Of a DNA stretch of 15,630 nucleotides, positions 1-14,104 are shown piece after piece. How positions within the stretch are numbered: the first letter of the stretch is position 1; each line of letters opens with the position of its first letter. Origin of the DNA: a virus (Duplodnaviria > Heunggongvirae > Uroviricota > Caudoviricetes); IMG/VR virus record IMGVR_UViG_2574180220_000001. The stretch is one strand, 5' to 3'. The translations under genes and the position numbers were made by a program. The notes beneath the pieces were generated by a model. It had not been told where the DNA came from. It saw only the letters and a program-made list of their open reading frames with translations, and searched no databases.

Positions 1-1284
1 TTACTTCTTCGCCTCTGCAACCACTTTACTACCCACGCCGCGGTTATTGTATTCCCACATGCGGTTGTAGTTAGTGTCATTCAGATTGCGCTGTATTTCG
101 TCGTTATCATCTACGCTGCCGGTATTACCCGCAAACGGACGATTAGAGATCACCGCATCGGCCCACGGTTTAGCCGTGTTAAAACCTTCGTTGATGGCGC
201 TATCACGGATCACCACCTGACCGTTGGTATTGGCATCAACATCCAGCGAGCGGCCCAGTTGCGCCACACCATCACCGAAAGCATTGAAACGGCTGTTTAC
301 GGCGAGGAAACCGTAGTAAATGTTGGACAGCGTAGCCGGTGCAAACACATACGCTTCTTGCTGAGTACGTGAGTTCACCACGCGGAATTCGGTGTTATCG
401 AACACCACTGCGCCGCGACCAGAAACGATATCCACATCCCCTTCAATGTAGCTGTTGGTCACCAGCGTACGCGGCTGACGATTCGTTTCCAGACGGTTCT
501 GCACACCGCTGTTGGTGACAAAGAAGGTGTTCTGACGACCGAGAATGTTAACGTTGTTAATCTGTACCTGGTCACCATCAGTACGCAGTGCCACCGCCGG
601 ATGGTTACCTGCATCTACGCTATCGCCCAGCGTGTTTTCGATGGTCAGATTTTGCAGTTGCAGGCCATTGTTTTGTGACCAGAAGACCGCAGAGCAGAGA
701 ACACCGATACTGTCGCTGCGTTTGCTCTGGCAGCTATCGTACATATACCACGCTGGTTTACCTGGCATATATTTGCCGCGCGGGTTGACGTCGTGACGCC
801 AGTCGGCAGGGCTCATGCCACCATCAAGGGAAAGCCCAATCTTCACATCAATCGGTTTTTCACCTGTACCGTACAGAGTAATTCCACCCGGAGCGGCAGG
901 GACATATACCGTTCCCTGATACTCACCAGGCATCACGGCAATATACTGGCGCTTGTTGGTACGCTTGATAATTGCCGCATCTACCGCCGCCTGAATCGTG
1001 GTATGCGTTACACCTTGAGTGCCCGCCGGGCCGACAACAAAGTCAGGTTGCGCAGGCAGGGTAATCGGGGAAGGATTCCACGCTGCTGCACCTGGTGTCA
1101 GGGATGCAAAATAGTGTTGAGCATCGAAATTCTGCGCTTCTTTTGCCGACAGAATCGGGCGAGAAGAGGTACCAGGCGCGGTTTGATCAGAAGGACGTTG
1201 ATCGGGCGGGGTTGAGCTACAGGCGGTCAGCGTCACGCCAAAAGCCAATGCCAGCGCCAGACGGGAAACTGAAAATGTGTTCAC
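1..1284 (-). CDS. ybhC: YbhC-like outer-membrane lipoprotein (pectinesterase-fold, acyl-CoA thioesterase family)
   Basis: 427-aa ORF with lipoprotein signal (LALAFGVTLTAC); matches my recollection of E. coli YbhC, which flanks lambda attB on the gal side. Stop codon is at window position 1-3. Confidence 0.85.
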   Translation of the reverse strand: MNTFSVSRLALALAFGVTLTACSSTPPDQRPSDQTAPGTSSRPILSAKEAQNFDAQHYFASLTPGAAAWNPSPITLPAQPDFVVGPAGTQGVTHTTIQAAVDAAIIKRTNKRQYIAVMPGEYQGTVYVPAAPGGITLYGTGEKPIDVKIGLSLDGGMSPADWRHDVNPRGKYMPGKPAWYMYDSCQSKRSDSIGVLCSAVFWSQNNGLQLQNLTIENTLGDSVDAGNHPAVALRTDGDQVQINNVNILGRQNTFFVTNSGVQNRLETNRQPRTLVTNSYIEGDVDIVSGRGAVVFDNTEFRVVNSRTQQEAYVFAPATLSNIYYGFLAVNSRFNAFGDGVAQLGRSLDVDANTNGQVVIRDSAINEGFNTAKPWADAVISNRPFAGNTGSVDDNDEIQRNLNDTNYNRMWEYNNRGVGSKVVAEAKK

Positions 1285-1323
1285 AGGTTGCTCCGGGCTA
1301 TGAAATAGAAAAATGAATCCGTT

Positions 1324-1418
1324 GAAGCCTGCTTTTTTATACTAAGTTGGCATTATAAAAAAGCATTGCTTATCAATTTGTTGCAACGAACAGGTCACTA
1401 TCAGTCAAAATAAAATCA
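1324..1418. other. Prophage attL (B-O-P'): lambda core GCTTTTTTATACTAA at 1331-1345 followed by the P' arm with Int arm-type sites and an IHF site
   Basis: Seen directly: 15-bp lambda att core, then GTTGGCATTATAAAAAAGCATTGCTTATCAATTTGTTGCAACGAACAGGTCACTATCAGTCAAAATAAAATCATTAT, matching the lambda P' arm; it abuts the 3' end of int. Confidence 0.9.
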
Positions 1419-2489
1419 TTATTTGATTTCAATTTTGTCCCACTCCCTGCCTCTGTCATCACGATACTGTGATGCCATGGTGTCCGACTTATGCCCGAGA
1501 AGATGTTGAGCAAACTTATCGCTTATCTGCTTCTCATAGAGTCTTGCAGACAAACTGCGCAACTCGTGAAAGGTAGGCGGACCCCCTTCGAAGGAAAGAC
1601 CTGATGCTTTTCGTGCGCGCATAAAATACCTTGATACTGTGCCGGATGAAAGCGGTTCGCGACGAGTAGATGCAATTATGGTTTCTCCGCCAAGAATCTC
1701 TTTGCATTTATCAAGTGTTTCCTTCATTGATATTCCGAGAGCATCAACATGCAATGCTGTTGGGATGGCAATTTTTACGCCTGTTTTGCTTTGCTCGACA
1801 TAAAGATATCCATCTACGATATCAGACCACTTCATTTCGCATAAATCACCAACTCGCTGCCCGGTAACAACAGCCAGTTCCATTGCAAGTCTAAGCCAAC
1901 ATGGTGATGATTCTGCTGCTTGATAAATTTTCAGGTATTCGTCAGCCGTAAGTCTTGATCTCCTTACCTCTGATTTTGCAGCGCGAGTGGCTGCGACCGG
2001 GTTTGTTGTTATATGGCCTTCAGCTATAGCCTCTCGGAATGCATCGCTCAGTGTTGATCTGATTAACTTGGCTGATGCCGCCTTGCCCTCGTCTATGTAT
2101 CCATTGAGCATTGCCGCAATTTCTTTTGTGGTGATGTCTTCAAGTGGAGCATCAGGCAGACCCCTCCTTATTGCTTTAATTTTGCTCATGTAATTTATGA
2201 GTGTCTTCTGCTTGATTCCTCTGCTGGCCAGGATTTTTTCGTAGCGATCAAGCCATGAATGTAACGTAACGGAATTATCACTGTTGATTCTCGCTGTCAG
2301 AGGCTTGTGTTTGTGTCCTGAAAATAACTCAATGTTGGCCTGTATAGCTTCAGTGATTGCGATTCGCCTGTCTCGGCCTAATCCAAACTCTTTACCCGTC
2401 CTTGGGTCCCTGTAGCAGTAATATCCATTGTTTCTTATATAAAGGTTAGGGGGTAAATCCCGGCGCTCATGACTTCGCCTTCTTCCCAT
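1419..2489 (-). CDS. int: Lambda-type tyrosine integrase Int
   Basis: 356-aa ORF (MGRRRSHERRDLPPNLYIRNNGYYCYRDPRTGKEF...) essentially as I recall lambda Int; 3' end adjacent to attL and 5' end overlapping xis, as in lambda. Confidence 0.97.
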   Translation of the reverse strand: MGRRRSHERRDLPPNLYIRNNGYYCYRDPRTGKEFGLGRDRRIAITEAIQANIELFSGHKHKPLTARINSDNSVTLHSWLDRYEKILASRGIKQKTLINYMSKIKAIRRGLPDAPLEDITTKEIAAMLNGYIDEGKAASAKLIRSTLSDAFREAIAEGHITTNPVAATRAAKSEVRRSRLTADEYLKIYQAAESSPCWLRLAMELAVVTGQRVGDLCEMKWSDIVDGYLYVEQSKTGVKIAIPTALHVDALGISMKETLDKCKEILGGETIIASTRREPLSSGTVSRYFMRARKASGLSFEGGPPTFHELRSLSARLYEKQISDKFAQHLLGHKSDTMASQYRDDRGREWDKIEIK

Positions 2490-2685
2490 TTCTGATCCTC
2501 TTCAAAAGGCTACCTGTTACTGGTCGATTTAAGTCAACCTTTACCGCTGATTCGTGGAACAGATACTCTCTTCCATCCTTAACCGGAGGAGGGAATATCC
2601 TGCACTCGCGTACCCATCGACGAACTGTTTCAAGGCTTCTTGGGCGTCGCTGGCGTGCGTTCCACTCCTGAAGTGTCAAGTACAT
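2467..2685 (-). CDS. xis: Excisionase Xis
   Basis: 72-aa ORF MYLTLQEWNARQRRPRSLETVRRWVRECRIFPPPVKDGREYLFHESAVKVDLNRPVTGSLLKRIRNGKKAKS, matching lambda Xis; overlaps int start. Confidence 0.95.
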   Translation of the reverse strand: MYLTLQEWNARQRRPRSLETVRRWVRECRIFPPPVKDGREYLFHESAVKVDLNRPVTGSLLKRIRNGKKAKS

Positions 2686-2711
2686 CGCAAAGTCTCCGCA
2701 ATTACACGCAA

Positions 2712-2735
2712 GAAAAAACCGCCATCAGGCGGCTT
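2712..2735 (-). terminator. Putative intrinsic terminator hairpin (GCCGCC-UGAU-GGCGG followed by U6 on the minus-strand transcript)
   Basis: Seen in sequence: GC stem with 4-nt loop and a run of six T on the minus strand; overlaps the stop codon of the 55-aa ORF upstream of xis. Confidence 0.4.
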
Positions 2736-2892
2736 GGTGTTCTTTCAGTTCTTCAATTCGAATATTGGTTACGTCTGCATGTGCTATCTGCGCCCACAGC
2801 ATCCAGTGGTCATAGCAGTCGCTGATGTTCTCGGCTTCGATAACTCTGTTGAATGGTTCTCCATTCCATTCACCTGTAACTCGGAAGTGCAT
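2725..2892 (-). CDS. Small hypothetical protein (lambda orf-55-like), 55 aa
   Basis: Hand-translated minus-strand ORF MHFRVTGEWNGEPFNRVIEAENISDCYDHWMLWAQIAHADVTNIRIEELKEHQAA; below the 60-aa cutoff of the ORF track. Size and position between xis and ea8.5 match lambda. Confidence 0.6.
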   Translation of the reverse strand: MHFRVTGEWNGEPFNRVIEAENISDCYDHWMLWAQIAHADVTNIRIEELKEHQAA

Positions 2893-2980
2893 TTATCATC
2901 GCCATAAAACAAAACTCGCCGTAGCGAGTTCAGATAAAAGAAATCCCCGCGAGTGCGAGGATAGTTACTTGTTCATATTA

Positions 2981-3262
2981 TTAATCGTCAATGTATTTTG
3001 AGCATTGTGGGCAATCATCGATCCCACAATACGATTCATATGCATCCTTTATTGCGTCGCGGGCTTCAGTAAGAGTATTGAATAAGTTGCAGCTATTATC
3101 TTTTTGATATAGGTAAGTTCCTAATTTATAAGCAGAAGAAGCATCATTTCCGCTGTCTAAAATTACATCGTTATGGATTCTGCACCTTGCAAGAACTCCT
3201 GATCCCATAAGGGTCTGCATAGCCCATTGCTCTTGATCTTCACACAAATCATGAATGCTCAT
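2981..3262 (-). CDS. ea8.5: Ea8.5-like protein (93 aa, C-terminal Cys-rich motif)
   Basis: Track ORF 2981..3280 begins at a GTG; the ATG at 3262 (MSIHDLCEDQ...) has a GAGAGG Shine-Dalgarno and gives 93 aa, the size and position of lambda ea8.5. C-terminus CGIDDCPQC. Confidence 0.75.
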   Translation of the reverse strand: MSIHDLCEDQEQWAMQTLMGSGVLARCRIHNDVILDSGNDASSAYKLGTYLYQKDNSCNLFNTLTEARDAIKDAYESYCGIDDCPQCSKYIDD

Positions 3263-3376
3263 TTCAACACCTCTCTTCACGTTTCACACACGTTAAGATT
3301 AACAGTGTTTTTACATGCTTTGGGAGATTTATTTTATAAAAACTCTTTTAATACAAATAGATATAATAGTTCACTA

Positions 3377-4105
3377 TTATAGCTCCTTTAATCGAGGCGG
3401 TTCTGGTAGAGGCATCCAGTGGGTTACACCGCCAATTGGCTCATCGTCGTCGTACTCCAATGCGGCTATATAGAACCCGTCACGACGAGAATAAGAAATC
3501 CCGGACATTACAATGCCATCCGAAACAACAATAATGTCACCCGTTTCTTTCGGCATTCGCTCACTACAGCTTATCCAACCATCCGGAGTCACCGGAAGCG
3601 AGAACGGCAGCACATCTCTGTGAACAAGTTTTTGCTGTGACAGGTTATCCAGAACTTTCTGTACTGCTGCATCACCGAATACACCAAGCGCATCTGCCAT
3701 AACTCCTACAACCTGATAAGCCTCAGCGCATACCGTGGATAAACCATCCGGAATTACCGGAGAGTTACGGTCCTTGCGGTAAATCCGGCATGTACAGGAT
3801 TCATTGTCCTGCTCAAAGTCCATGCCATCAAACTGCTGGTTTTCATTGATGATGCGGGACCAGCCATCAACGCCCACCACCGGAACAATGCCGTTCTGCT
3901 TATCAGGGAAGGCGTAAATTTCTTTCGTCCACGGATTAAGGCCGTACTGGTTGGCGACGATCAGCAATGCGATGAACTGCGCATCGCTGGCATCACCTTT
4001 AAATGCCGTCTGGCGAAGAGTGGTGATCAGTTCCTGTGGGTCGACAGAATCCATGCCGACACGTTCAGCCAGCTTCCCAGCCAGCGTTGCGAGTGCTGTA
4101 CTCAT
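3377..4105 (-). CDS. Chimeric ORF: N-terminal ~115 aa of Bet (Red-beta annealing protein) fused in frame to a non-Bet C-terminus ending in a DUF551-like motif (VTHWMPLPEPP)
   Basis: Residues 1-115 (MSTALATLAGKLAERVGMDSVDPQELITTLRQ...NESCTCRIYRKDRN) match lambda Bet; the sequence then diverges completely (SPVIPDGLSTVCAEAY...GGVTHWMPLPEPPRLKEL). No exo gene lies downstream. Junction near plus coordinate 3760. Confidence 0.8.
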   Translation of the reverse strand: MSTALATLAGKLAERVGMDSVDPQELITTLRQTAFKGDASDAQFIALLIVANQYGLNPWTKEIYAFPDKQNGIVPVVGVDGWSRIINENQQFDGMDFEQDNESCTCRIYRKDRNSPVIPDGLSTVCAEAYQVVGVMADALGVFGDAAVQKVLDNLSQQKLVHRDVLPFSLPVTPDGWISCSERMPKETGDIIVVSDGIVMSGISYSRRDGFYIAALEYDDDEPIGGVTHWMPLPEPPRLKEL

Positions 4106-4110
4106 CCGTT

Positions 4111-4527
4111 TTATACCTCTGAATCAATATCAACCTGGTGGTGAGCAATGGTTTCAACCATGTACCGGATGTGTTCTGCCATGCGCTCCTGAAACTCAAC
4201 ATCGTCATCAAACGCACGGGTAATGGCTTTTTTGCTGGCCCCGTGGCGTTGCAAATGATCGATGCATAGCGATTCAAACAGGTGCTGGGGCAGGCCTTTT
4301 TCCATGTCGTCTGCCAGTTCTGCCTCTTTCTCTTCACGGGCGATCTGCTGGTAGTGACGCGCCCAGCTCTGAGCCTCAAGACGATCCTGAATGTAATAAG
4401 CGTTCATGGCTGAACTCCTGAAATAGCTGTGAAAATATCGTCCGCGAAATGCCGGGCTGATTAGGAAAACAGGGAAGGGGGGTAGTGAATGCTTTTGCTT
4501 GATCTCAGTTTCAGTATTAATATCCAT
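4111..4527 (-). CDS. gam: Gam (RecBCD inhibitor), 138 aa
   Basis: [15 protein letters not shown]...[10 protein letters not shown] matches lambda Gam; internal Met (MNAYYIQ) corresponds to the GamS start. Confidence 0.95.
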
Positions 4528-4625
4528 TTTTTATAAGCGTCGACGGCCTCACGAAACATCTTTTCATCGCCAATAAAAGTGGCGATAGTGAATTTAGTCT
4601 GGATAGCCATAAGTGTTTGATCCAT
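4461..4625 (-). CDS. kil: Kil (FtsZ-targeting host-killing peptide), ~54 aa here
   Basis: [39 protein letters not shown]...; start has an AGGAG Shine-Dalgarno and overlaps cIII by 32 nt and gam by 67 nt. I recall lambda Kil as 47 aa, so the C-terminus may be extended here. Confidence 0.8.
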
Positions 4626-4758
4626 TTTTTGGGACTCCTGGCTGATTAAGTATGTCGATAAGGCGTTTCCATCCGTCACGTAATTTACGGGTGATTCGTT
4701 CAAGTAAAGATTCGGAAGGGCAGCCAGCAACAGGCCACCCTGCAATGGCATATTGCAT
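4594..4758 (-). CDS. cIII: CIII (FtsH/HflB inhibitor), 54 aa
   Basis: Hand-translated [54 protein letters not shown] with AAGGAG Shine-Dalgarno; below the ORF-track size cutoff. Confidence 0.9.
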   Translation of the reverse strand: MQYAIAGWPVAGCPSESLLERITRKLRDGWKRLIDILNQPGVPKNGSNTYGYPD

Positions 4759-4785
4759 GGTGTGCTCCTTATTTATACATAACGA

Positions 4786-4808
4786 AAAACGCCTCGAGTG
4801 AAGCGTTA
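4786..4808 (-). terminator. Weak terminator-like hairpin between ea10 and cIII (short stem followed by U5 on the minus transcript)
   Basis: Seen in sequence: AACGC...GCGTT stem around an XhoI palindrome, then TTTTT on the minus strand. Could correspond to a pL-operon terminator; weak. Confidence 0.3.
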
Positions 4809-4830
4809 TTGGTATGCGGTAACGCCGCGC

Positions 4831-5199
4831 TCAGGCGGCTTTGATAGTCATATCATCTGGATCAAATATTCCTGATGTATCGATATCGGTAATTCTTATT
4901 CCTTCGCTACCATCCATTGGAGGCCATCCTTCCTGACCATTTCCATCATTCCAGTCGAACTCACACACAACACCATATGCATTTAAGTCGCTTGAAATTG
5001 CTATAAGCAGAGCATGTTGCGCCAGCATGATTAATACAGCATTTAATACAGAGCCGTGTTTATTGAGTCGGTATTCAGAGTCTGACCAGAAATTATTAAT
5101 CTGGTGAAGTTTTTCCTCTGTCATTACGTCATGATCGATTTCAATTTCTATTGATGCTTTCCAGTCGTAATCAATGATGTATTTTTTGATGTTTGACAT
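4831..5199 (-). CDS. ea10: Ea10 (lambda Ssb-like protein), 122 aa
   Basis: 122-aa ORF MSNIKKYIIDYDWKASIEIEIDHDVMTEEKL... matching lambda Ea10 in size, sequence and position. Confidence 0.9.
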   Translation of the reverse strand: MSNIKKYIIDYDWKASIEIEIDHDVMTEEKLHQINNFWSDSEYRLNKHGSVLNAVLIMLAQHALLIAISSDLNAYGVVCEFDWNDGNGQEGWPPMDGSEGIRITDIDTSGIFDPDDMTIKAA

Positions 5200-5381
5200 C
5201 TATTCATATCCTCATAGATAAAAAATCGCCCTCACACTGGAGGGCAAAGAAGATTTCCAATAATCAGAACAAGTCGGCTCCTGTTTAGTTACGAGCGACA
5301 TTGCTCCGTGTATTCACTCGTTGGAATGAATACACAGTGCAGTGTTTATTCTGTTATTTATGCCAAAAATAAAGGCCACTA

Positions 5382-5582
5382 TCAGGCAGCTTTGTTGTTC
5401 TGTTTACCAAGTTCTCTGGCAATCATTGCCGTCGTTCGTATTGCCCATTTATCGACATATTTCCCATCATCCATTACAGGAAACATTTCTTCAGGCTTAA
5501 CCATGCATTCCGATTGCAGCTTGCATCCATTGCATCGCTTGAATTGTCCACACCATTGATTTTTATCAATAGTCGTAGTCAT
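5382..5582 (-). CDS. ral: Ral (restriction alleviation protein), 66 aa
   Basis: MTTTIDKNQWCGQFKRCNGCKLQSECMVKPEEMFPVMDDGKYVDKWAIRTTAMIARELGKQNNKAA matches lambda Ral; 183-bp spacing to ea10 as in lambda. Confidence 0.92.
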   Translation of the reverse strand: MTTTIDKNQWCGQFKRCNGCKLQSECMVKPEEMFPVMDDGKYVDKWAIRTTAMIARELGKQNNKAA

Positions 5583-5687
5583 ACGGATAGTCCTGGTATT
5601 GTTCCATCACATCCTGAGGATGCTCTTCGAACTCTTCAAATTCTTCTTCCATGTATCACCTTAAATAGTGGATTGCGGTAGTAAAGA

Positions 5688-5909
5688 TTGTGCATGGCCC
5701 GTCTGAAAAAGAACAACAGCGATTTGCACGATTTATTAGTAGATTATTATATAGTCGGTATGACATTCATGTCACTGGCAGGTAAGCATTGCTGCTCTGA
5801 TGGTTATATCGGGAAAAGGTTACAAAAGGCTGAGGGCATAATTGAAGGGATGTTAATGGCATTAGATATCCGGTTAGAGATGGATATCGTTGTTAATAAC
5901 TCTAATTAA
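5688..5909 (+). pseudogene. 5'-truncated remnant (C-terminal ~71 aa) of an antiterminator Q gene of the phage 82 / DLP12 QuuD type
   Basis: [71 protein letters not shown] resembles the C-terminus of Q82/QuuD as I recall it; frame is closed by a TAA just upstream; lies immediately upstream of the porin and lysis genes, where Q sits in DLP12/PA-2-type phages. Lambda-like sequence ends at about 5693. Confidence 0.55.
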
Positions 5910-5928
5910 TACGCCAATTATTTACTAA

Positions 5929-5960
5929 AAGTTATTAAAAATGGGGCGTTGAAACGCCCC
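5929..5960 (-). terminator. Intrinsic terminator downstream of the porin gene (GGGGCG-UUUCAA-CGCCCC then AUUUUU on the minus transcript)
   Basis: Seen in sequence: 6-bp GC stem followed by a U-tract on the minus strand; the last of four consecutive hairpins 3' of the porin gene. Confidence 0.5.
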
Positions 5961-6097
5961 CAAAAATAAAGGGTAATATATAACAGAAGGTTTATATAGT
6001 TAGAAGCAAGGTTGTGCTTCTAAAGGAAGTGGCTTGAGGGAGCCACTTATATGTTGGGGAGGCAAAGCCTCCCACAACATATCTTTTAGTAATCAAA

Positions 6098-7180
6098 TTA
6101 GAACTGGTAAACCATACCTACAGCAACGATATCATCGGTAGCAACGCCAGATGCTTTCGTGAAATCGCTCTTATCAATCAGGTTGATTTTGTAGTCAACA
6201 AAAGTGGACATATTTTTGTTGAAGTAATAGGTTGCACCTACATCAACATATTCAACCAGGTCCTGATCACCCCAAACACCCAAGTCTTTTCCTTTAGAAT
6301 GCAGGTAAGCAACGGATGGACGCAGGCCGAAGTCGAACTGATATTGTGCAACAGCTTCGAAGTTTTGTGCTTTGTTGGCAATATGGTTATTACCAAAAAC
6401 AGTCATGTTCTGGGTTTCAGAATAGGTGGTAGCCAGATAGATGTTGTTCGCATCATATTTCAGACCAGCTGCCCATACTTCAGCATTTTGACCAGAAGCA
6501 TTCAGACCGTTGTTACCGTAGATAACCTGATTATTAGTGCGATCAGATTTAGCATAGGTTGCACCCACGCCGAATCCTTCATACTCATAAGTAGTTGAGA
6601 AACCGAAACCATCGCCATTAGCTTCAGTTACTTCATTTCGGTCATTTTTGCCCTGATACTGAGCTGCAAAGTTCAGGCCATCAACCAGACCAAAGAAGTC
6701 GTTGTTACGATAAGTTGCAACACCTGTGGTGCGACCAGTCATGAATACATCTGTTTGGGTCCAGGTATCGCCACCGAATTCTGGCAGAACGTCGGTCCAT
6801 GCACCGATGTCGTATGCTACACCGTAGTTACGGCCGTAATCGATGGAGCCGTAGTCACCGAATTTCAGGCCAGCGAAGGCAAGACGGGTTTTATCTTTGG
6901 AGGAACCTTGAGATTCAGCGCGGTTGCCTTTGAATTCATATTCCCACTGACCGAAACCAGTCAGTTGATCGTTGATTTGGGTTTCACCTTTGAAGCCAAG
7001 ACGGGCATAAGTAGTATCACCATCATCTGCATCATTAGAGGAGAAGTAGTGCTTGGCATTAACTTTCCCGTACAGATCCAGCTTGTTACTGTCTTTATTA
7101 TAAATTTCAGCTGCCTGAGCAGACATCGCCATCAGTACTGATGCAGCTACAGCAGAAATTGCCACTGTTAATTTTTTCAT
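6098..7180 (-). CDS. nmpC: OmpC-family general porin, prophage-encoded NmpC/Lc-like, intact (360 aa)
   Basis: Signal peptide [23 protein letters not shown], porin motifs ([57 protein letters not shown]), C-terminal VYQF. Position between Q and the holin matches the lc/nmpC moron of PA-2/DLP12. Confidence 0.85.
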
Positions 7181-7608
7181 CGTGAGCCCTTTTTTTTGAA
7201 CTATTATTAAAAAATGATGTCACTGCGCGATAAATATTCATCTAATCAATGTGATTATTTCAAGATGTAAGTTTTAGTTTCTCGTTTGATTTGTGAAGTA
7301 GATCTCTATTTTTATCTGAACTTTTTTCTATCGAATCCTATTCATGGCTCTTGGCTGAATAAAAATAAATCTATTAGCCAATTTATATTAACGGCTGTTA
7401 TTTATAAGTGCTCTATAATTTGAAGGTTCAATTTAAACCGGCTAAAAATAACACTGGAAATTATTTATTGGTTATTTGTTGAGATTTTCTTATGTATTTG
7501 TAGTGGTGTTTTCAATACTCGGTAGCATTCTCGCAAATATCATTTAGTGGTTTACGTACGTAAAAAATTGGTTATGCTGTTAAGAGTGGTTACTTCGTCA
7601 CACAGCTT

Positions 7609-7641
7609 AAACCCGCCGTCGAGCGGGTTTTTCCATTTTTT
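7609..7641 (+). terminator. Intrinsic terminator upstream of the holin gene, tR'-like (AAACCCGC-CGTCGA-GCGGGTTT then TTCCATTTTTT)
   Basis: Seen in sequence: 8-bp stem and T-rich tract on the plus strand about 130 bp before the holin start. A possible late promoter (TTTACG ... TATGCT, about 7551-7578) precedes it, with low confidence. Confidence 0.5.
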
Positions 7642-7769
7642 GAGTCTCGATATTAGCTGATAACCCAATACCTGAGTTATTCACTGACTCCGAGTCTGTT
7701 ACGTTTCTGCTTTTTTGCGATACGTTGTATTCCCTCAATTTACACCCGCTTTGTCTGCGAGGTGGGGTT

Positions 7770-7985
7770 ATGAAATCCATGGATAAGTTAACAACGGGTG
7801 TCGCCTATGGCACCTCAGCAGGTAGTGCCGGTTACTGGTTTTTACAGCTGCTCGATAAAGTCACGCCCTCACAGTGGGCAGCAATAGGTGTGCTGGGTAG
7901 CCTGGTATTTGGCCTGCTGACGTACCTGACAAACCTTTATTTCAAGATTAAAGAAGATAAGCGCAAGGCTGCGAGAGGTGAATAA
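7770..7985 (+). CDS. S: Class II holin (pinholin), phage 21 S-type, 71 aa with dual-start motif MKSMDK
   Basis: [71 protein letters not shown] resembles S21 / EssD; GGTGGGG Shine-Dalgarno. The track ORF 7725..7985 begins at an upstream start. Confidence 0.85.
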
Positions 7986-8482
7986 TGCCTCCATCATTAC
8001 GAAAAGCCGTTGCTGCTGCTATTGGTGGCGGAGCAATTGCTATAGCATCAGTGTTAATTACTGGCCCAAGTGGTAACGATGGTCTGGAAGGTGTCAGCTA
8101 CGTACCATACAAAGATATCGTTGGCGTATGGACTGTATGTCACGGACACACCGGAAAAGACATCATGCTCGGTAAAACGTATACCAAAGCAGAATGCAAA
8201 GCACTCTTGAATAAAGACCTTGCCACTGTCGCCAGACAAATTAACCCGTACATCAAAGTCGATATACCGGAAACAACGCGCGGCGCTCTTTACTCATTCG
8301 TTTACAACGTGGGTGCTGGCAATTTCAGAACATCGACGCTTCTTCGCAAAATAAACCAGGGCGATATCAAAGGCGCATGTGATCAGCTACGTCGCTGGAC
8401 ATATGCTGGCGGTAAGCAATGGAAAGGTCTCATGACTCGTCGTGAGATTGAGCGTGAAATCTGTTTGTGGGGTCAGCAATGA
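7985..8482 (+). CDS. R: SAR endolysin (T4-lysozyme-like, GH24), phage 21 R-type, 165 aa
   Basis: N-terminal Gly/Ala-rich signal-arrest-release segment ([20 protein letters not shown]), catalytic E-x8-D/C-x5-T region ([23 protein letters not shown]); start overlaps the holin stop. Confidence 0.9.
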
Positions 8483-8940
8483 ACAGAGTAACCGCGATTA
8501 TCTCCGCTCTGGTTATCTGCATCATCGTCTACCTGTCATGGGCTGTTAATCATTACCGTGATAACGCCATTACCTACAAAGCCCAGCGCGACAAAAATGC
8601 CAGAGAACTGAAGCTGGCGAACGCGGCAATTACTGACATGCAGATGCGTCAGCGTGATGTTGCTGCGCTCGATGCAAAATACACGAAGGAGTTAGCTGAT
8701 GCTAAAGCTGAAAATGATGCTCTGCGTGATGATGTTGCCGCTGGTCGTCGTCGGTTGCACATCAAAGCAGTCTGTCAGTCAGTGCGTGAAGCCACCACCG
8801 CCTCCGGCGTGGATAATGCAGCCTCCCCCCGACTGGCAGACACCGCTGAACGGGATTATTTCACCCTCAGAGAGAGGCTGATCACTATGCAAAAACAACT
8901 GGAAGGAACCCAGAAGTATATTAATGAGCAGTGCAGATAG
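8479..8940 (+). CDS. Rz: Rz inner-membrane spanin (i-spanin)
   Basis: [55 protein letters not shown]... matches lambda Rz; ATGA overlap with the R stop. Track lists 8467 as an alternative upstream start. Confidence 0.9.
8699..8881 (+). CDS. Rz1: Rz1 outer-membrane lipoprotein spanin (o-spanin), embedded in the +1 frame of Rz
   Basis: [60 protein letters not shown]; lipobox LVVVGC and proline-rich region; fully nested inside Rz as in lambda. Confidence 0.9.
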
Positions 8941-8971
8941 AGTTGCCCATATCGATGGGCAACTCATGCAA

Positions 8972-9265
8972 TTATTGTGAGCAATACACACGCGCTTCCA
9001 GCGGAGTATAAATGCCTAAAGTAATAAAACCGAGCAATCCATTTACGAATGTTTGCTGGGTTTCTGTTTTAACAACATTTTCTGCGCCGCCACAAATTTT
9101 GGCTGCATCGACAGTTTTCTTCTGCCCAATTCCAGAAACGAAGAAATGATGGGTGATGGTTTCCTTTGGTGCTACTGCTGCCGGTTTGTTTTGAACAGTA
9201 AACGTCTGTTGAGCACATCCTGTAATAAGCAGGGCCAGCGCAGTAGCGAGTAGCATTTTTTTCAT
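8972..9265 (-). CDS. bor: Bor lipoprotein (serum-resistance, Iss-like lysogenic conversion protein), 97 aa
   Basis: MKKMLLATALALLITGCAQQTFTVQNKPAAVAPKETITHHFFVSGIGQKKTVDAAKICGG... matches lambda Bor; lipobox LITGC. Confidence 0.9.
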   Translation of the reverse strand: MKKMLLATALALLITGCAQQTFTVQNKPAAVAPKETITHHFFVSGIGQKKTVDAAKICGGAENVVKTETQQTFVNGLLGFITLGIYTPLEARVYCSQ

Positions 9266-9555
9266 GGTGTTATTCCCGATGCTTTTTGAAGTTCGCAGAA
9301 TCGTATGTGTAGAAAATTAAACAAACCCTAAACAATGAGTTGAAATTTCATATTGTTAATATTTATTAATGTATGTCAGGTGCGATGAATCGTCATTGTA
9401 TTCCCGGATTAACTATGTCCACAGCCCTGACGGGGAACTTCTCTGCGGGAGTGTCCGGGAATAATTAAAAACGATGCACACAGGGTTTAGCGCGTACACG
9501 TATTGCATTATGCCAACGCCCCGGTGCTGACACGGAAGAAACCGGACGTTATGAT

Positions 9556-10089
9556 TTAGCGTGGAAAGATTTGTGTAGTGTTCTGAATGCTCTCAGTAAA
9601 TAGTAATGAATTATCAAAGGTATAGTAATATCTTTTATGTTCATGGATATTTGTAACCCATCGGAAAACTCCTGCTTTAGCAAGATTTTCCCTGTATTGC
9701 TGAAATGTGATTTCTCTTGATTTCAACCTATCATAGGACGTTTCTATAAGATGCGTGTTTCTTGAGAATTTAACATTTACAACCTTTTTAAGTCCTTTTA
9801 TTAACACGGTGTTATCGTTTTCTAACACGATGTGAATATTATCTGTGGCTAGATAGTAAATATAATGTGAGACGTTGTGACGTTTTAGTTCAGAATAAAA
9901 CAATTCACAGTTTAAATCTTTTCGCACTTGATCGAATATTTCTTTAAAAATGGCAACCTGAGCCATTGGTAAAACCTTCCATGTGATACGAGGGCGCGTA
10001 GTTTGCATTATCGTTTTTATCGTTTCAATCTGGTCTGACCTCTTTGTGTTTTGTTGATGATTTATGTCAAATATTAGGAATGTTTTCAC
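9556..10089 (-). CDS. Hypothetical protein at the position of lambda p78, possibly DUF1398 / YbcV-like; function unknown
   Basis: 177-aa ORF; size and spacing to bor and to the next ORF match the lambda right arm. An internal Met ([11 protein letters not shown]...) would give 136 aa, the size I recall for DLP12 YbcV. Family assignment is from memory only. Confidence 0.65.
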
Positions 10090-10251
10090 TTAATAGTATT
10101 GGTTGCGTAACAAAGTGCGGTCCTGCTGGCATTCTGGAGGGAAATACAACCGACAGATGTATGTAAGGCCAACGTGCTCAAATCTTCATACAGAAAGATT
10201 TGAAGTAATATTTTAACCGCTAGATGAAGAGCAAGCGCATGGAGCGACAAA

Positions 10252-10458
10252 ATGAATAAAGAACAATCTGCTGATGATCCCTCCGTGGATCTGATTCGTG
10301 TAAAAAATATGCTTAATAGCACCATTTCTATGAGTTACCCTGATGTTGTAATTGCATGTATAGAACATAAGGTGTCTCTGGAAGCATTCAGAGCAATTGA
10401 GGCAGCGTTGGTGAAGCACGATAATAATATGAAGGATTATTCCCTGGTGGTTGACTGA
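10252..10458 (+). CDS. Hypothetical 68-aa protein at the position of lambda p79 (YbcW-like)
   Basis: [71 protein letters not shown]; 163-bp spacing from the preceding ORF as in lambda. Confidence 0.6.
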
Positions 10459-10622
10459 TCACCATAACTGCTAATCATTCAAACTATTTAGCCTGTGACA
10501 GAGCCAACACGCAGTCTGTCACTGTCAGGAAAGTGGTAAAACTGCAACTCAATTACTGCAATGCCCTCGTAATTAAGTGAATTTACAATATCGTCCTGTT
10601 CGGAGGGAAGAACGCGGGATGT

Positions 10623-10817
10623 TCATTCTTCATCACTTTTAATTGATGTATATGCTCTCTTTTCTGACGTTAGTCTCCGACGGCAGGCTTCAATGACCCA
10701 GGCTGAGAAATTCCCGGACCCTTTTTGCTCAAGAGCGATGTTAATTTGTTCAATCATTTGGTTAGGAAAGCGGATGTTGCGGGTTGTTGTTCTGCGGGTT
10801 CTGTTCTTCGTTGACAT
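10623..10817 (-). CDS. Putative ribbon-helix-helix (Arc/CopG-like) DNA-binding protein, 64 aa
   Basis: MSTKNRTRRTTTRNIRFPNQMIEQINIALEQKGSGNFSAWVIEACRRRLTSEKRAYTSIKSDEE: basic N-terminal tail, beta-strand (RNIRFP), helix, G-x-S-x-N turn, second helix; typical RHH pattern. Lies ~200-400 bp upstream of cos. No strong Shine-Dalgarno. Confidence 0.45.
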   Translation of the reverse strand: MSTKNRTRRTTTRNIRFPNQMIEQINIALEQKGSGNFSAWVIEACRRRLTSEKRAYTSIKSDEE

Positions 10818-11009
10818 GAGGTTGCCCCGTATTCAGTGTCGCTGATTTGTATTGTCTGAAGTTGTTTTTACGTTAAGTTGATGCAGATCAATTAATACGA
10901 TACCTGCGTCATAATTGATTATTTGACGTGGTTTGATGGCGTAGATGCACGTTGTGACATGCAGATGATAATTATTATCATTTTGCGGGTCCTTTCCGGT
11001 GATCCGACA

Positions 11010-11200
11010 GGTTACGGGGCGGCGACCTCGCGGGTTTTCGCTATTTATGAAAATTTTCCGGTTTAAGGCGTTTCCGTTCTTCTTCGTCATAACTTAATGT
11101 TTTTATTTAAAATACCCTCTGAAAAGAAAGGAAGCGACAGGTGCTGAAAGCGAGCTTTTTGGCCTCTGTCGTTTCCTTTCTCTGTTTTTGTCCGTGGAAT
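11010..11200. other. cos region: cosN 12-nt cohesive-end sequence GGGCGGCGACCT at about 11017-11028, followed by cosB up to the nu1 start
   Basis: Seen in sequence: GGGCGGCGACCTCGCGGGTTTTCGCTATTTATGAAAATTTTCCGGTTTAAGGCG... matches the lambda left end / cos junction as I recall it. Confidence 0.85.
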
Positions 11201-11205
11201 GAACA

Positions 11206-11775
11206 ATGGAAGTCAACAAAAAGCAGCTGGCTGACATTTTCGGTGCGAGTATCCGTACCATTCAGAACTGGCAGGAACAGGGAATGCCCGTTCTGCGAGG
11301 CGGTGGCAAGGGTAATGAGGTGCTTTATGACTCTGCCGCCGTCATAAAATGGTATGCCGAAAGGGATGCTGAAATTGAGAACGAAAAGCTGCGCCGGGAG
11401 GTTGAAGAACTGCGGCAGGCCAGCGAGGCAGATCTCCAGCCAGGGACTATTGAGTACGAACGCCATCGACTTACGCGTGCGCAGGCCGACGCACAGGAAC
11501 TGAAGAATGCCAGAGACTCCGCTGAAGTGGTGGAAACCGCATTCTGTACTTTCGTGTTGTCGCGGATCGCAGGTGAAATTGCCAGTATTCTCGACGGGAT
11601 CCCCCTGTCGGTGCAGCGGCGTTTTCCGGAACTGGAAAACCGACATGTTGATTTCCTGAAACGGGATATCATCAAAGCCATGAACAAAGCAGCCGCGCTG
11701 GATGAACTGATAACGGGGCTAAAGCGCAGGCGCTCACTATCAACAAGGATGAGGTTAACTCAACTGTTGATTTAA
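11206..11775 (+). CDS. nu1: Terminase small subunit Nu1 with its C-terminus replaced (first ~170 aa lambda-like, last ~19 aa unrelated)
   Basis: MEVNKKQLADIFGASIRTIQNWQEQGMPVLRGGGKGNEVLYDSAAVIKWY... matches lambda Nu1 up to ...KAMNKAAALDELI, then diverges (TGLKRRRSLSTRMRLTQLLI); no terminase large subunit gene follows. Confidence 0.85.
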   Translation: MEVNKKQLADIFGASIRTIQNWQEQGMPVLRGGGKGNEVLYDSAAVIKWYAERDAEIENEKLRREVEELRQASEADLQPGTIEYERHRLTRAQADAQELKNARDSAEVVETAFCTFVLSRIAGEIASILDGIPLSVQRRFPELENRHVDFLKRDIIKAMNKAAALDELITGLKRRRSLSTRMRLTQLLI

Positions 11776-12428
11776 CTCTTACAAAACAAACAGGGACTGG
11801 AAATCGTTTTGTTTTACAGAACTTAGGTAATACAGAACTATCATTTGCCGCAAAAGTATGGGGATCAAGTGATCGACAAAACGTTTTTGAGGTTGGAACG
11901 TCTGCTGCGTATCTGTTTTATGCGCAAAAAACGTCAGCAGGCCAGTTGTTTGATGTAAATGGCGCTATTAATTGCACAACGCTGAATCAGTCATCAGACC
12001 GCGACCTTAAAGACGATATTCTCGTTATCAGCGACGCGACGAAAGCAATCCGTAAAATGAACGGATACACCTACACGCTCAGGGAAAACGGGATGCCTTA
12101 TGCTGGCGTTATTGCACAGGAAGTAATGGAGGCGATACCAGAAGCTGTGGGATCGTTTACTCATTACGGTGAAGAGTTGCAGGGACCAACGGTTGACGGC
12201 AATGAATTACGTGAAGAAACACGTTATCTGAATGTTGACTACGCCGCCGTGACGGGGTTACTTGTTCAGGTCGCCCGTGAAACAGATGGTCGCGTTACCG
12301 CGCTGGAAGAGGAAAACATAACGCTACGTAAAAATCTGGCAACAGCAGGCACCCGGATCAGCACTCTGGAAAATCAGGTAAGCGAACTGGTTGCACTTGT
12401 CCGGCAGTTAACAGGAAGCGAACATTGA
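11706..12428 (+). pseudogene. C-terminal fragment of a tail fibre / tailspike gene carrying a peptidase S74-type intramolecular chaperone domain; no own start at the junction
   Basis: Frame is open from the nu1 junction; contains the autoproteolysis-type motif SSDRDLKDDI followed by NGYTYTLRENGMPYAGVIAQEVMEAIPEAV and a C-terminal coiled-coil-like segment. Track reports only the Met-initiated part, 11946..12428. Confidence 0.6.
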
Positions 12429-12473
12429 TATCCTTCAAGCCCTGAAGGAGGCTGTTCCCGGTACGTTCAGACT

Positions 12474-12608
12474 GTTGTTGGGCTGGAGATCGCAACGGAG
12501 GAAGAAAACTCGTTGCTGGAAGCCTGGAAAAAGTATCGGGTGTTGCTGAACCGTGTTAATACAACAACTGCACCGGATATTGAATGGCCAGTAGCACCTA
12601 TAGGGTAA
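12474..12608 (+). pseudogene. 3' fragment of a tail-fibre assembly gene (Tfa-like C-terminus), no start codon
   Basis: Hand-translated: ...[41 protein letters not shown], resembling the conserved Tfa C-terminus (lambda Tfa ends ...[26 protein letters not shown]... as I recall); same frame as the preceding ORF, directly after its stop. Confidence 0.6.
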
Positions 12609-12692
12609 ATTCGTAATGATTACCTAAATACGTTATTCTTTTGTTCAAAAAGTGATTTTGCTATAGGTAGGGAGTATGTTCTTGGATTAAGA

Positions 12693-12724
12693 ATAAAAAA
12701 TCGCCATGAAAGAGCTTCATGGCG
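12693..12724 (-). terminator. Hairpin with U-tract on the minus strand (CGCCAUGAA-loop-UUCAUGGCG then AUUUUUU)
   Basis: Seen in sequence: 9-bp stem followed by a T-run on the minus strand, inside the AT-rich non-coding region; no obvious upstream minus-strand gene. Confidence 0.3.
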
Positions 12725-13467
12725 AGTACATAAACGTACAAAATGTGATGAAAGTAGAGTGGCGTAAGCCACTATATTAAGATATGACAATAGCGAAGAA
12801 AAGTAAATAACATTTTATGGACGTTTAATTGTTAATTATAAAAACTAGAGTGCCCGATATTGTTTATCTTGCTTTAAAATAATGTACTCAAACCAAATTT
12901 TTGAGCTAAAAGCTCAAATAATATAAATGCAATGATAATGTTTAATAAGACAATTAGCTTGCTTTGTATTTTCATTTCGGAATACTGTTAAGTAACTTTG
13001 ATGACCCTAACAATAGATCGGAATTTTCTTAGGGTCAATGGTCAATGTTTTTGCTTGCAAAGCAAATGTTTTGGTGGTTATAAGTTGTCTTAATATAGTC
13101 ACGCATGCAACTTGTTCCATGCGGAGATTAAAGATTGGAATATAACGCGAAGATGGAATTAAATTACATTTGCAATAACCAATTTATTATTACTCAATAA
13201 TTACCGATATTATTATTGTAAATTAATCATTAGAGTGCAAAAAGAAATGTAACGGCAAAATAAGAGGACGATAGCTGAGAAAAAAGCGTGCTTTCCCAAT
13301 CTGGGGCAAATCACGTCTGAATGACACCTGAAAACAGGTGGTAGCCTCAAGAAGGCTTGGAATATTCTTCTTTAATGTTATGTAATTCATTGATTTTTCG
13401 TGTACGATTTTAAGACATTTATTCCAAGAAAAATTTTTAACTCTTTGATTTTTCGACTCTGTATCAT

Positions 13468-13529
13468 CGGTCTCGAAAACCGGAGTAGGGGCAACTCTAC
13501 CGGGGGTTCAAATCCCCCTCTCTCCGCCA
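13468..13529 (+). tRNA. Partial tRNA-Ser (CGA anticodon; serU-like) 3' portion only (anticodon arm, variable arm, T-arm, acceptor 3' strand, CCA); 5' part absent
   Basis: GGTCTCGAAAACCGGAGTAGGGGCAACTCTACCGGGGGTTCAAATCCCCCTCTCTCCGCCA matches the 3' two-thirds of E. coli tRNA-Ser(CGA) as I recall it; upstream sequence cannot pair to form the acceptor or D arms. Confidence 0.7.
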
Positions 13530-14104
13530 CTTTATCAATGACTTATCTCCCGACTTCCCGCCTTGCTTTTCCTAAACAGAACAATCGTAGAATATTCTTG
13601 AAGGGTTAGATCGTCACTGTTTTCTGTTCGATACTGTGACATTCAGCACTTGATTCGCTATGGATCTGACAGGAAGGTTTTGAGCGAAAATTTGCAGTTA
13701 TTCAGTTGTTTTCTTATCGGTCACCATTATTCTTTTAGACATTGATCCTACAAAGCTGCCGCAAAGTTGGTGGTGGGAACTGAAGTTGCGTAGAGAAGGG
13801 GTCAATACCCGGAGGCAAACATGGGCTGGCAAAAGTGTAGCGGTATTAGGCGCAGCTATTTAGCCTAGTTATGTTTTATGAAAACTTGATATCATATAAG
13901 TGTCTTACTTATTGGCTGTAAATAAGTTTTTCCTAAGGAATTGTTTCTTGAGTATCATTTGTAACTGTAACGGAATTTATAATCCTTTGCTTTATTGTTA
14001 CGGTATTTTTTATCACACCCTATTTTTTATGTGGTTTTTTATACTGAAGTTTGGCAAAGTGAACTTTATATGCATATACTTCATCCTGGTTTCAGTTAAG
14101 TTGG

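Follow-up and report, generated by a model that had tools for sequence, protein, structure and literature searches.

Genes and sites in the window

The stretch of DNA analysed here (15,630 nucleotides, below called the window) very probably carries a lambdoid prophage that has become cryptic (defective) and is passed on by vertical descent within one E. coli lineage; it occupies the attachment site of lambda, flanked by ybhC and ybhB. Decayed lambda-type remnants at attB are already well known as a kind, and defective lambda-type prophages at ybhC-ybhB are on record in E. coli B and Crooks (PMC3032704). The genes and sites are listed below; percentages and residue counts refer to the lambda protein unless another reference is named.

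1-1284, minus: ybhC, host gene left of the prophage
1331-1345: attL core (B-O-P') GCTTTTTTATACTAA, exact lambda 15-bp core
1419-2489, minus: int, lambda-type integrase of 356 aa, intact (99.2% to lambda Int, 356/356 residues)
2467-2685, minus: xis, intact (98.6%, 72/72 residues)
2725-2892, minus: orf55 (lambdap35), intact (96.4%, 55/55 residues)
2981-3262, minus: ea8.5 homologue, divergent allele, full length (41% to lambda Ea8.5; Pfam Lambda_ea8_5, E=9e-16)
3377-4105, minus: in-frame fusion ORF of 242 aa, Bet N-terminal plus DUF551 C-terminal part (Pfam RecT 24-99, DUF551 176-237)
4111-4527, minus: gam, intact (97.8%, 138/138 residues)
4482-4625, minus: kil, intact (100%, 47/47 residues)
4594-4771, minus: cIII, intact (100%, 54/54 residues), with 5' thermoregulator RNA element (Rfam RF01804 at 4713-4771, 88.5 bits)
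4831-5199, minus: ea10, intact (99.2%, 122/122 residues)
5382-5652, minus: ral and orf28, intact (98.5% over 66/66 and 100% over 28/28 residues, respectively)
5691-5909, plus: Q' fragment, C-terminal 72 residues of a QuuD/Q21-type antiterminator (Pfam Phage_antitermQ, profile 56-118 of 118; 96.9% identity to the DLP12 quuD 3' end)
5746-5775, minus: promoter-like site GTGACA-18-TATAAT, antisense in Q' and directed toward orf28 and ral (11/12 consensus positions)
5943-5960: strong terminator-like hairpin, past the porin gene
6098-7180, minus: OmpC/NmpC-type phage porin, 360 aa, intact (Pfam Porin_1, E=4e-152)
7770-8482, plus: P21-type holin (essD type, 71 aa) and lysozyme (rrrD type, 165 aa) (Pfam Phage_holin_2_1, Phage_lysozyme)
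8479-8940, plus: Rz, intact, with Rz1 embedded at 8699-8881 (98.7% and 100% to lambda)
8972-9265, minus: bor (serum-resistance lipoprotein), intact (100%, 97/97 residues)
9556-10089, minus: p78/ybcV
10252-10458, plus: p79/ybcW
10623-10817, minus: ylcI
10985-11205, plus: cos region with cosQ-side and cosB sequences, cohesive end GGGCGGCGACCT at 11017-11028
11206-11775, plus: truncated nu1, residues 1-169 plus 20 residues read out of frame (Pfam Phage_Nu1 1-164 of 164)
11713-12428, plus: stf 3' part with the S74 intramolecular-chaperone domain (Pfam Peptidase_S74; 100% to the stf of the related sequence L001)
12465-12605, plus: tfa 3' fragment, residues 147-192
12606-15630: phage b region, continuing beyond the window to attR
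14114-14857, plus: AraC-family regulator of the b region (Pfam HTH_AraC)
14899-15264, minus, and 15415-15630, plus: IS3-family transposase fragments of the b region (Pfam rve_3)

In the alignment, homology to lambda starts at window position 1331, which corresponds to lambda position 27724; the attL core is preceded by the bacterial B arm and followed by the phage P' arm. The right attachment site lies beyond the window. In a 100%-identical contig (L148), the attR core ACTTTTTTATACTAA, whose first base is A and not G, is found at position 14650, followed by CTTGAGCG and ybhB. Taken from this contig, attR corresponds to window position 15855, about 225 bp past the window end, and the element, measured from attL in the window to attR in L148, is 14,539 bp long. 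The attL core with its arms, attR next to ybhB, and int and xis next to attL mark it as a lambda-type prophage at attB-lambda.

When all lambda proteins were compared with the window by tblastn, Int, Xis, Orf55, Gam, Kil, CIII, Ea10, Ral, Orf28, Rz, Rz1, Bor, p78 and p79 were found at full length with 96-100% identity. No lambda A-J, lom, N-terminal part of stf or exo was detectable in the same search, nor were lambda N, rex, cI, cro, cII, O, P, ren, nin, Q, S or R. The cos region is identical to lambda positions 48472-48502 plus 1-117; R2 carries one substitution (lambda nt 118), and a single 1-bp deletion lies between R2 and R1. The b region includes an AT-rich spacer of 1.5 kb, and its AraC-family regulator is a full-length homologue of AppY with 29% identity. 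The promoter-like site within Q' owes its perfect predicted -10 hexamer to one C>T change, the sole difference from DLP12, ev099 and NCTC9104 over 101 nt. The predicted promoter (5775-5746) could drive orf28, ral and perhaps genes further downstream.

Deletion joints

The element contains at least four joints:

3765/3766: joint 1, within the bet/DUF551 fusion, 2-nt (TT) microhomology
5690-5693: joint 2, from lambda nt ~34398 (just past orf28) to the last 72 codons of the QuuD-type Q gene, 4-nt GTGC microhomology
11711-11712: joint 3, crossover TA (lambda nt 696-697) in GATA/ACGGGG, break at 11712/11713
12429-12465 (approximate limits of the break): joint 4, the tfa 3' fragment abutting the stf stop codon (12428)

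Joint 1 is flanked by window 1-3766, which equals L001 1001-4766, and by window 3765-5696, which equals lambda 32470-34401. The resulting ORF consists of Bet residues 1 to ~113 and the last ~128 residues of the DUF551 protein, and the fragment of the DUF551 gene sits between ea8.5 and the bet joint. According to the alignment of parent and product, joint 2 removed about 8-10 kb, from sieB/N through nin, plus most of Q; it is common to L001, L006 and L007 and is absent from NCTC9104, where quuD is intact. At joint 3 the lambda homology of nu1 stops, and the adjoining stf remnant corresponds to the L001 stf (1101 residues) from residue 865 to the last residue. The arrangement at joint 4 also occurs in L001 and in E. 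coli 042.

The APEC O78-type relatives also have joint 2 and the stf/tfa joint, which are therefore the older ones, whereas joints 1 and 3 are private to the lineage of the window. Microhomology of 2-4 nt is found at each joint, which points to illegitimate recombination as the mechanism. Sister remnants at the same site each have a private deletion of their own: bet/kil and A'/J' in APEC O78, nu1/stf residue 1036 in EC130, int/kil in TD225 and bet/ren in NCTC9104. These differences indicate ongoing independent decay.

Distribution and relationship to known prophages

The same remnant is present, with 99.9-100% identity, in at least 20 draft assemblies, which shows that it is a fixed clonal remnant. 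Both junction-specific fusion proteins co-occur in at least 20 independent assemblies differing by 0-7 SNPs per 14 kb, and this argues against the joints being assembly chimeras. Neither joint 1 nor the exact joint 3 occurred among 5,426 complete E. coli genomes (0/5,426). Such stable vertical inheritance at one locus, together with the loss of the essential lytic modules (Q is down to 72 residues), identifies the element as a cryptic prophage. Presence in many isolates reflects clonal inheritance and is silent on selection.

With lambda (NC_001416) the element shares the att core, int to orf55, the N-terminal part of bet, and gam to orf28 at 97-99% nucleotide identity, as well as Rz, Rz1, bor, p78, p79, cos and nu1 at about 99%. 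In contrast, 52 of the 70 lambda genes are missing, the element has a porin gene, its Q, holin and lysozyme do not belong to the lambda type, and the ea47-ea59 region of lambda is unrelated to the b region. The closest functional phage is ev099 (NC_049953). It has the lambda-type int/xis and red region, QuuD-type Q, porin, P21-type lysis genes and lambda-type cos/nu1, and a b region with the same AraC regulator and transposase fragments (window 12466-15630 versus ev099 23562-26726, 99.1% identity). Unlike the element, ev099 is complete at 47.2 kb, carries a KilA-N gene in the place of bor and differs in its ea8.5-region and stf alleles.

The APEC O78-type remnant, found at the same attB in about 20 complete genomes (NC_020163, NZ_CM142793 and others), has the same flanks and is 99.95-100% identical across 95% of the window. 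It differs in retaining the ea22-exo region, the A' and J' fragments, lom and full stf, and its own bet/kil deletion has removed gam and most of bet. Neither of the two remnants descends from the other.

DLP12 of E. coli K-12 is colinear with the element, at about 96%, over the quuD 3' end, nmpC-type porin, essD, rrrD and rzpD and also over bor, ybcV, ybcW, ylcI and nohD, and it has an AraC-family regulator (AppY) at the same right-end position. However, DLP12 is located at argU with a different integrase, lacks a lambda-type left arm, and has an intact nohD with an A' fragment behind it. Identity of the element with DLP12 was rejected, as there is no argU or intD here but ybhC/ybhB with lambda int, and only the late region is DLP12-like. 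Truncated nu1 directly fused to a 3' stf fragment is also seen in Qin (nohA-stfQ junction) and in the 042-type remnant. The 042-type joint falls at the TA of joint 3, with its stf end point 9 bp deeper in the same region, but immunity, replication and nin are kept and identity is only about 95%; the Qin junction is displaced to the right within nu1 by about 22-24 nt. The site and the int-xis-orf55 left end are also those of Lambda*B of E. coli B and lambda-Cr of Crooks, which have been reduced to a similar size, about 12 kb (PMC3032704; REL606 locus), whereas their other gene content is unrelated (P22-like terminase, acyltransferases and others). Classification as a PICI-like cos-type satellite is also disfavoured: the genes of such a satellite were not found, every ORF of appreciable size being a lambda, DLP12 or ev099 homologue.

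Origin and functional state of the element

An earlier note on this DNA had described a grounded lambdoid prophage at attB, about 11 kb in size, shortened by at least three internal joints and ending at 12608. Alignments to lambda, DLP12, ev099 and the sister remnants, which located each joint, support this core reading, and alignments and the protein inventory confirm the gene order attL-int-xis ... nu1-stf-tfa. By tblastn none of the immunity, replication, nin, head and tail genes said to be absent is left, and the shared joints agree with the suggestion of a fixed lineage-specific remnant. The three joints are real, and the stf/tfa joint brings the number to at least four; with the b region, which occupies the DNA right of the proposed end, the size is about 14.5 kb. 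The genes read as S-R are indeed a holin and a lysozyme gene, but of the P21 type (essD/rrrD), without a match to lambda S or R. Similarly, the proposed lambda-like parentage applies to part of the element: the element descends from a mosaic phage, closely related to ev099 and about 47 kb in size, with a lambda-type int-xis-red-gam-kil-cIII-ral arm, Rz-bor-cos-nu1 segment and att site, a DLP12/phage-21-type Q-porin-holin-lysozyme segment and a b region with an AraC-family regulator.

At least four simple deletions in the same orientation, whose joints are described above, cut this parent to 14.5 kb. The older pair comprises the deletion from the orf28 side to the Q 3' end, with loss of immunity, replication and nin, and the loss of the 5' part of tfa; the private pair comprises the joint between the DUF551 gene and bet and the nu1/stf joint, which took away gene A to most of stf. 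The precursor of joint 3 may have had an intact A-J region or an APEC O78-like A'/J' intermediate. It is hardly conceivable that the joints are instead old module boundaries from free phage evolution. Boundaries between lambda-type and DLP12-type modules older than integration do exist, and occur in the functional phages ev099 and the PhiR series (for example the lysozyme/Rz boundary at 8479), but joints 1-4 each cut a gene in mid-ORF, a colinear relative has the missing sequence on both sides of each joint with flanks 99-100% identical, and none of the four was found in any functional phage.

Judged from its gene content, the deleted prophage should be unable to replicate, repress, package or build particles; pL, pR, N and cII are gone. 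The lysis genes, without Q, and kil and gam, without pL and N and behind terminator-like hairpins, are most likely silent. The likely expressed cargo is the set of self-promoted conversion genes, namely the porin, bor and the AraC-type regulator. Since int, xis, attL and attR look intact, excision would be possible, but only if transcription or Int/Xis were supplied in trans. With its 14.5 kb, one cos unit is far too short for the lambda packaging range.

The earlier note had also proposed that the retained genes could be host-controlled or mobilised by a helper. The loss of the early promoters, N, cII and most of Q and the lack of a replicon leave this proposal unsupported, and helper mobilisation is possible in principle only. 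That the element is a functional helper-dependent satellite, keeping int/xis, att, cos and the DNA-binding part of Nu1 for excision and packaging by a superinfecting lambdoid phage, is very unlikely. Its attachment sites, int and xis are intact, as is cosN, with cosB nearly so, and three copies (43.6 kb) would fall inside the packaging range, but multimers require replication and no replicon, helper-sensing regulator or packaging-redirection gene was found among its ORFs (Pfam, tblastn). The early promoters and activators for int and xis are all deleted, int (TD225) or more of stf (EC130) has been lost from sister remnants without visible constraint, and the element was found only at the ybhC-ybhB chromosomal site, in near-identical clonal copies. 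Defective O157 prophages have been excised, packaged and transferred through prophage-prophage interactions (PMC2669165). For the present remnant, the realistic way back into circulation would be homologous recombination with infecting lambdoid phages rather than its own packaging.

Selection for host benefit, through surface conversion by the porin and Bor, the AppY-like regulator, Ral, or a Nu1 truncated at its C-terminus and titrating the cosB of incoming phages, is an unlikely but less remote explanation for its persistence. The conversion genes are intact, truncated nu1 genes of the nohA/nohD kind are very widespread, the base change giving the perfect -10 hexamer upstream of ral is specific to the family, and pleiotropic host effects are mentioned for AppY in PMC10057817. 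However, intact ORFs are expected by default in so young a remnant, the copies are too similar for a test of purifying selection, and the base change that makes the putative promoter was noticed post hoc and stands alone.

A recurrent deletion point upstream of gene A

In public sequences, 22 different deletions begin at the TA at which joint 3 occurred (CTGATA/CCGGGG in lambda, in the small-terminase gene nu1, 14 nt before the start codon of gene A), each with an end point of its own in A, W, E, Z, J, lom, stf or another late gene; at five control positions, zero such recurrent deletions were found. All have the same orientation, so that the morphogenetic region is lost in every case. At the crossover each partner site also reads TA, with a tendency to TA-N-C-S-G, and in the products the bases right of the TA are always those of the partner, even where longer microhomology is available further right. 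This pattern suggests a directional, site-preferring strand-exchange or template-switch process, unlike random microhomology joining. We are inclined to think that lambdoid prophages have a deletion hot spot precise to the base, of which joint 3 is an example. If this is true, lambda-like prophages would repeatedly become grounded by way of this hot spot, and it would account for the ubiquity of truncated nu1 directly fused to stf fragments, as at joint 3 and in the 042-type remnant.

The repeated, independent loss of head and tail genes at one TA, in many prophages unrelated to each other, was an unexpected result.

Boundaries and content of the remnant

The left 1,284 bases of the window belong to the host gene ybhC (minus strand), and an exact 15-bp lambda att core is present at 1331-1345. 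Since the bacterial B arm lies to the left of this core and the lambda P' arm to its right, the core is attL. The right end had been placed at 12608 in the earlier note, which made the prophage about 11 kb long; neither value was correct. The sequence 12466-15630 is 99.1% identical to nucleotides 23562-26726 of ev099 (NC_049953), the closest functional phage, where it constitutes the b region (tfa to attP), and in all related remnants this stretch separates the tfa fragment from ybhB. Contig L148 matches the window at 100% identity over 14,425 bases and extends through attR: the attR core ACTTTTTTATACTAA was found there at the position equal to window 15855, followed by the B' arm and ybhB. 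Thus, the element is 14,539 bp long, and the window stops approximately 225 bp before attR. The first base of the attR core in L148 (14650-14664) is A, not G, and the P-arm side thus reads CAACTT; this variant is common to APEC O78-type remnants.

Segments of the window aligning with lambda (NC_001416)
1331-3027, lambda 27724-29420: att, int, xis, orf55, start of ea8.5
3765-5696, lambda 32470-34401: 5' part of bet, gam, kil, cIII, ea10, ral, orf28
8479-11016, lambda 45966-48502: Rz, Rz1, bor, p78, p79, right cos end
11017-11718, lambda 1-703: left cos end, nu1
12483-12589, lambda 22429-22535: 3' end of tfa

Translated comparison showed that Int, Xis, Orf55, Gam, Kil, CIII, Ea10, Ral, Orf28, Rz, Rz1, Bor, p78 and p79 are present in full length with 96-100% identity to their lambda counterparts. 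Ea8.5 is also full-length, yet only 41% identical. Bet (up to about residue 113), Nu1 (up to 169) and Tfa (only 147-192) are partial, and the remaining lambda proteins had no match in the window. The region 5690-8478, which does not align with lambda, is colinear with ev099 and with the K-12 cryptic prophage DLP12 (96-97% identity); it comprises the final 72 codons of a QuuD-type Q and the genes for an intact porin (360 residues), a P21-type holin and a lysozyme. The Rfam search detected the lambda cIII thermoregulator at 4713-4771, and a scan of the window for tRNA genes found none.

The right part (12466-15630) contains an AT-rich spacer, a gene for an AraC-family regulator and fragments of an IS3-family transposase. 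In 12606-14857, 1.5 kb of AT-rich (35% GC), ORF-free DNA is followed by the regulator gene, whose product is a full-length homologue of AppY (29% identity); AppY occupies the matching right-end position in DLP12, and the cassette of AT-rich stretch and regulator is also present in ev099. The IS3-family fragments (14899-15630) occur in ev099 as well, and must therefore be older than the integration. IS2 copies were seen at varied positions in relatives (e.g. L006, one of the nu1-deletion loci described below, 3765-4993).

Internal joints

Four deletion joints were located.

Deletion joints of the remnant
Joint 1, 3765/3766: 3' 390 bp of the DUF551 gene to bet within codon 114; microhomology TT
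Joint 2, 5690-5693: lambda ~34398 to the 3' end of Q; microhomology GTGC
Joint 3, 11712/11713: nu1 after lambda nt 697 to stf codon 865/1101; microhomology TA inside the imperfect patch CTGATAcCGGGG / CTGtTAaCGGGG
Joint 4, ~12429-12465: stf stop codon to the last 46 codons of tfa, with loss of the 5' part of tfa

Joint 1 removed about 3.7 kb (the rest of the DUF551 gene, the ea22-type genes, exo and the 3' part of bet), joint 2 about 8-10 kb (sieB/N, immunity, replication, nin and most of Q), and joint 3 everything from gene A through most of stf. Retained and deleted DNA add up to approximately 47-49 kb, which equals the size of ev099. The reading frame is kept across joint 1, which creates a 242-residue ORF (3377-4105, minus strand), in which a partial RecT domain (the N-terminus of Bet) is fused to the C-terminus of the DUF551 protein. 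This exact fusion protein was found in at least 24 contigs and marks the lineage.

Relatives and order of events

E. coli B and Crooks are known to carry defective lambda-type prophages between ybhC and ybhB (PMC3032704). At the locus of the E. coli B strain REL606 the left end is the same as in the window, but the content is otherwise different; identity with lambda*B of E. coli B can be discarded, since only the int-xis-orf55 end is common to the two. Membership in the DLP12 group is also out, as integration site and integrase differ. DLP12 and Qin, another cryptic prophage, are the textbook analogues, and the remnant is an ordinary element of this well-known kind, not a new one.

Neither joint 1 nor the exact joint 3 was found in 5,426 complete E. 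coli genomes, where at best 95% of the window was matched, in 3-5 pieces. Contig JMGR01000018.1 (GCA_000687085.1) is identical to the window. The question raised in the earlier note, whether this is a fixed lineage-specific remnant, can be answered with yes: both junction-specific fusion proteins occur together in at least 20 draft assemblies and metagenome contigs, always at the same locus, and the copies are 0-7 SNPs per 14 kb apart. One carrier has an additional IS21 between the porin and holin genes (L150, 4102-6404).

The APEC O78-type version (22 kb, in about 20 complete genomes) is 99.95-100% identical to the window over 95% of its length. It has joints 2 and 4 in common with the window; its ea22-exo region is retained, and bet|kil and A'|J' joints of its own are present. 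Gam is missing from the APEC O78 type and present in the window. Neither element is derived from the other, and their common ancestor must therefore already have carried joints 2 and 4. Private joints were found in four sister remnants.

Sister remnants at the same attB and their private joints
EC130: nu1 to stf residue 1036
TD225-C4: int to kil (L007, 2663-2666)
NCTC9104: bet to ren (L175, 7130-7134), with nin and quuD intact
APEC O78 type: bet to kil (L001, 8175-8185)

In the sisters, related prophages have decayed independently along different paths, a natural series which, together with the remnant, shows one ancestral prophage eroding differently across related lineages. Taken alone the remnant is of little weight and adds one more recorded step of prophage decay at a classical site.

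Functional capacity

Apart from the right boundary and the size, the description in the earlier note was largely right, including the view that the prophage is grounded: the repressor, N, cII, O/P, the large terminase subunit and the head and tail genes are missing, and Q is a stub. Int, xis, attL, attR and cosN are all intact, and cosB is nearly so. Relative to lambda, cosB has one substitution in the R2 Nu1-binding site (window 11134, lambda nt 118) and lacks 1 bp between R2 and R1 (window ~11154, lambda ~138); cosN and the cosQ side match lambda exactly. Lambda packaging has size limits, and packaging of the non-replicating 14.5-kb unit by a helper is unlikely; the suggested mobilisation by a helper phage is unsupported. 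For such remnants recombination with infecting lambdoid phages is a documented route back into circulation (PMC2669165).

With pL and N gone and terminator-like hairpins at 5247-5226 and 4807-4788 (minus strand), kil and gam are probably not transcribed. The lysis cassette is probably silent without Q, and the porin transcript would be stopped short of ral by a strong hairpin at 5960-5943. The likely candidates for expression are the genes with their own promoters, namely porin, bor and the AraC-type regulator. Within the Q stub, in antisense orientation and 94 nt upstream of orf28/ral, there is a promoter-like site close to the sigma-70 consensus (GTGACA-18-TATAAT, 5746-5775, minus strand). 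Its perfect -10 hexamer arose by one C>T change, the sole difference from DLP12, ev099 and NCTC9104 over 101 nt, which occurs in the family carrying joint 2.

A recurrent deletion point in nu1

The one feature that merits further work is the hot spot at joint 3. In the window, in EC130 and in the 042-type remnant (187 complete genomes, ~95% identity) nu1 is broken after the identical base, with right endpoints in stf at 0, +516 and +9 bp, respectively. Targeted scans in which the 23 nt preceding the joint had to be followed by a base other than C yielded eight different right-hand partners in IMG/VR and eight further ones in metagenomes, and a scan for GATACC with a next base other than G added four more, all with TACC in the partner parent. 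Including the window and EC130, there are 22 distinct deletions (loci L004, L006, L010-L022, L032, L103 and L156-L173) with a common crossover TA (GATA|CCGGGG; window 11711-11712, lambda nt 696-697). All 20 deletions with an assignable far side have the same orientation and lead into A, W, E, Z, J, lom, stf or another tail gene; the other two partners had no late-gene match. Control scans of identical design gave no matches when ending at lambda 653, 694, 721 or 736, and only SNP variants when ending at 703. The hot-spot pattern had no match in species-representative genomes, and literature searches turned up nothing relevant on a nu1 deletion hot spot.

An unbiased sample was obtained with an anchor 70 nt upstream (at least 120 loci); among the matches listed, 106 loci of a tally that also took in 11 loci of the biased IMG/VR scan with the same anchor were colinear with lambda over 1.5 kb. 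About 12 true breaks were present among the anchor-scan loci listed, two at 697 and two at 699. By a simple binomial, the probability of 4 of 12 breaks, among the matches listed, falling within a 4-nt window of ~1,250 positions is near 5e-8. The same peak was seen in a spread sample of complete genomes, in which partial matches ended at 697 (three times), 700, 880, 955 and 966.

The uninterrupted parent sequence was recovered for 18 partner sites, and all of them have TA at the crossover. The partner sites tend to TA-N-C-S-G, with G at +4 in 18 of 22 (background 0.29) and C at +2 in 12 of 22, and they resemble CCGGGG more than the 647 other TA sites of the lambda late region do (P=0.0004). To the right of the TA the product always has the bases of the partner, even if a longer exact match (CGGGG, GTTGCT) is available further right. 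These data argue against random microhomology joining and suggest a directional process anchored on TA, for which a template switch or single-strand exchange by a site-preferring enzyme are candidates.

Several other explanations were considered and rejected. A hairpin or cruciform does not explain the site: the predicted DNA fold was no better than that of shuffled sequences (z=0.13), and no notable inverted repeat was found nearby. Random heteroduplex repair after a staggered cut of 4 nt (GATA) would give joints at nt 694, and none was found, while crossover anywhere in the TA-x-CGGGG patch would give joints at nt 703, where there were SNP variants alone. The likeness of ATACC-GG-GGTTG to the Gin/Pin-type invertase site AAACC-GA-GGTTT is by eye only; such an enzyme would exchange at 699-701 in a dyad-symmetric site, and neither prediction fits the majority class at 697. 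Similarity to the cosN nick context (ACG^GGGC) places the predicted nick 3 nt off the observed exchange point. If the nu1 sequence does repeatedly trigger loss of the structural block, the grounding of E. coli prophages would be partly sequence-programmed and not purely random, and the hot spot would make illegitimate recombination in vivo accessible to experiment.

Further endpoints recur, two of them as weaker left endpoints. Lambda 880 was used three times (L085, L104 and H165). Lambda 1758 (GATA|CGGG) was used with different partners by the APEC O78-type remnant (L001, 16473) and NCTC9104 (L175, 18453). The stf site GGTTA|ACCGCG was joined to three left endpoints, 697, ~721 and 880 (in Qin, L008, and in loci L104 and L167).
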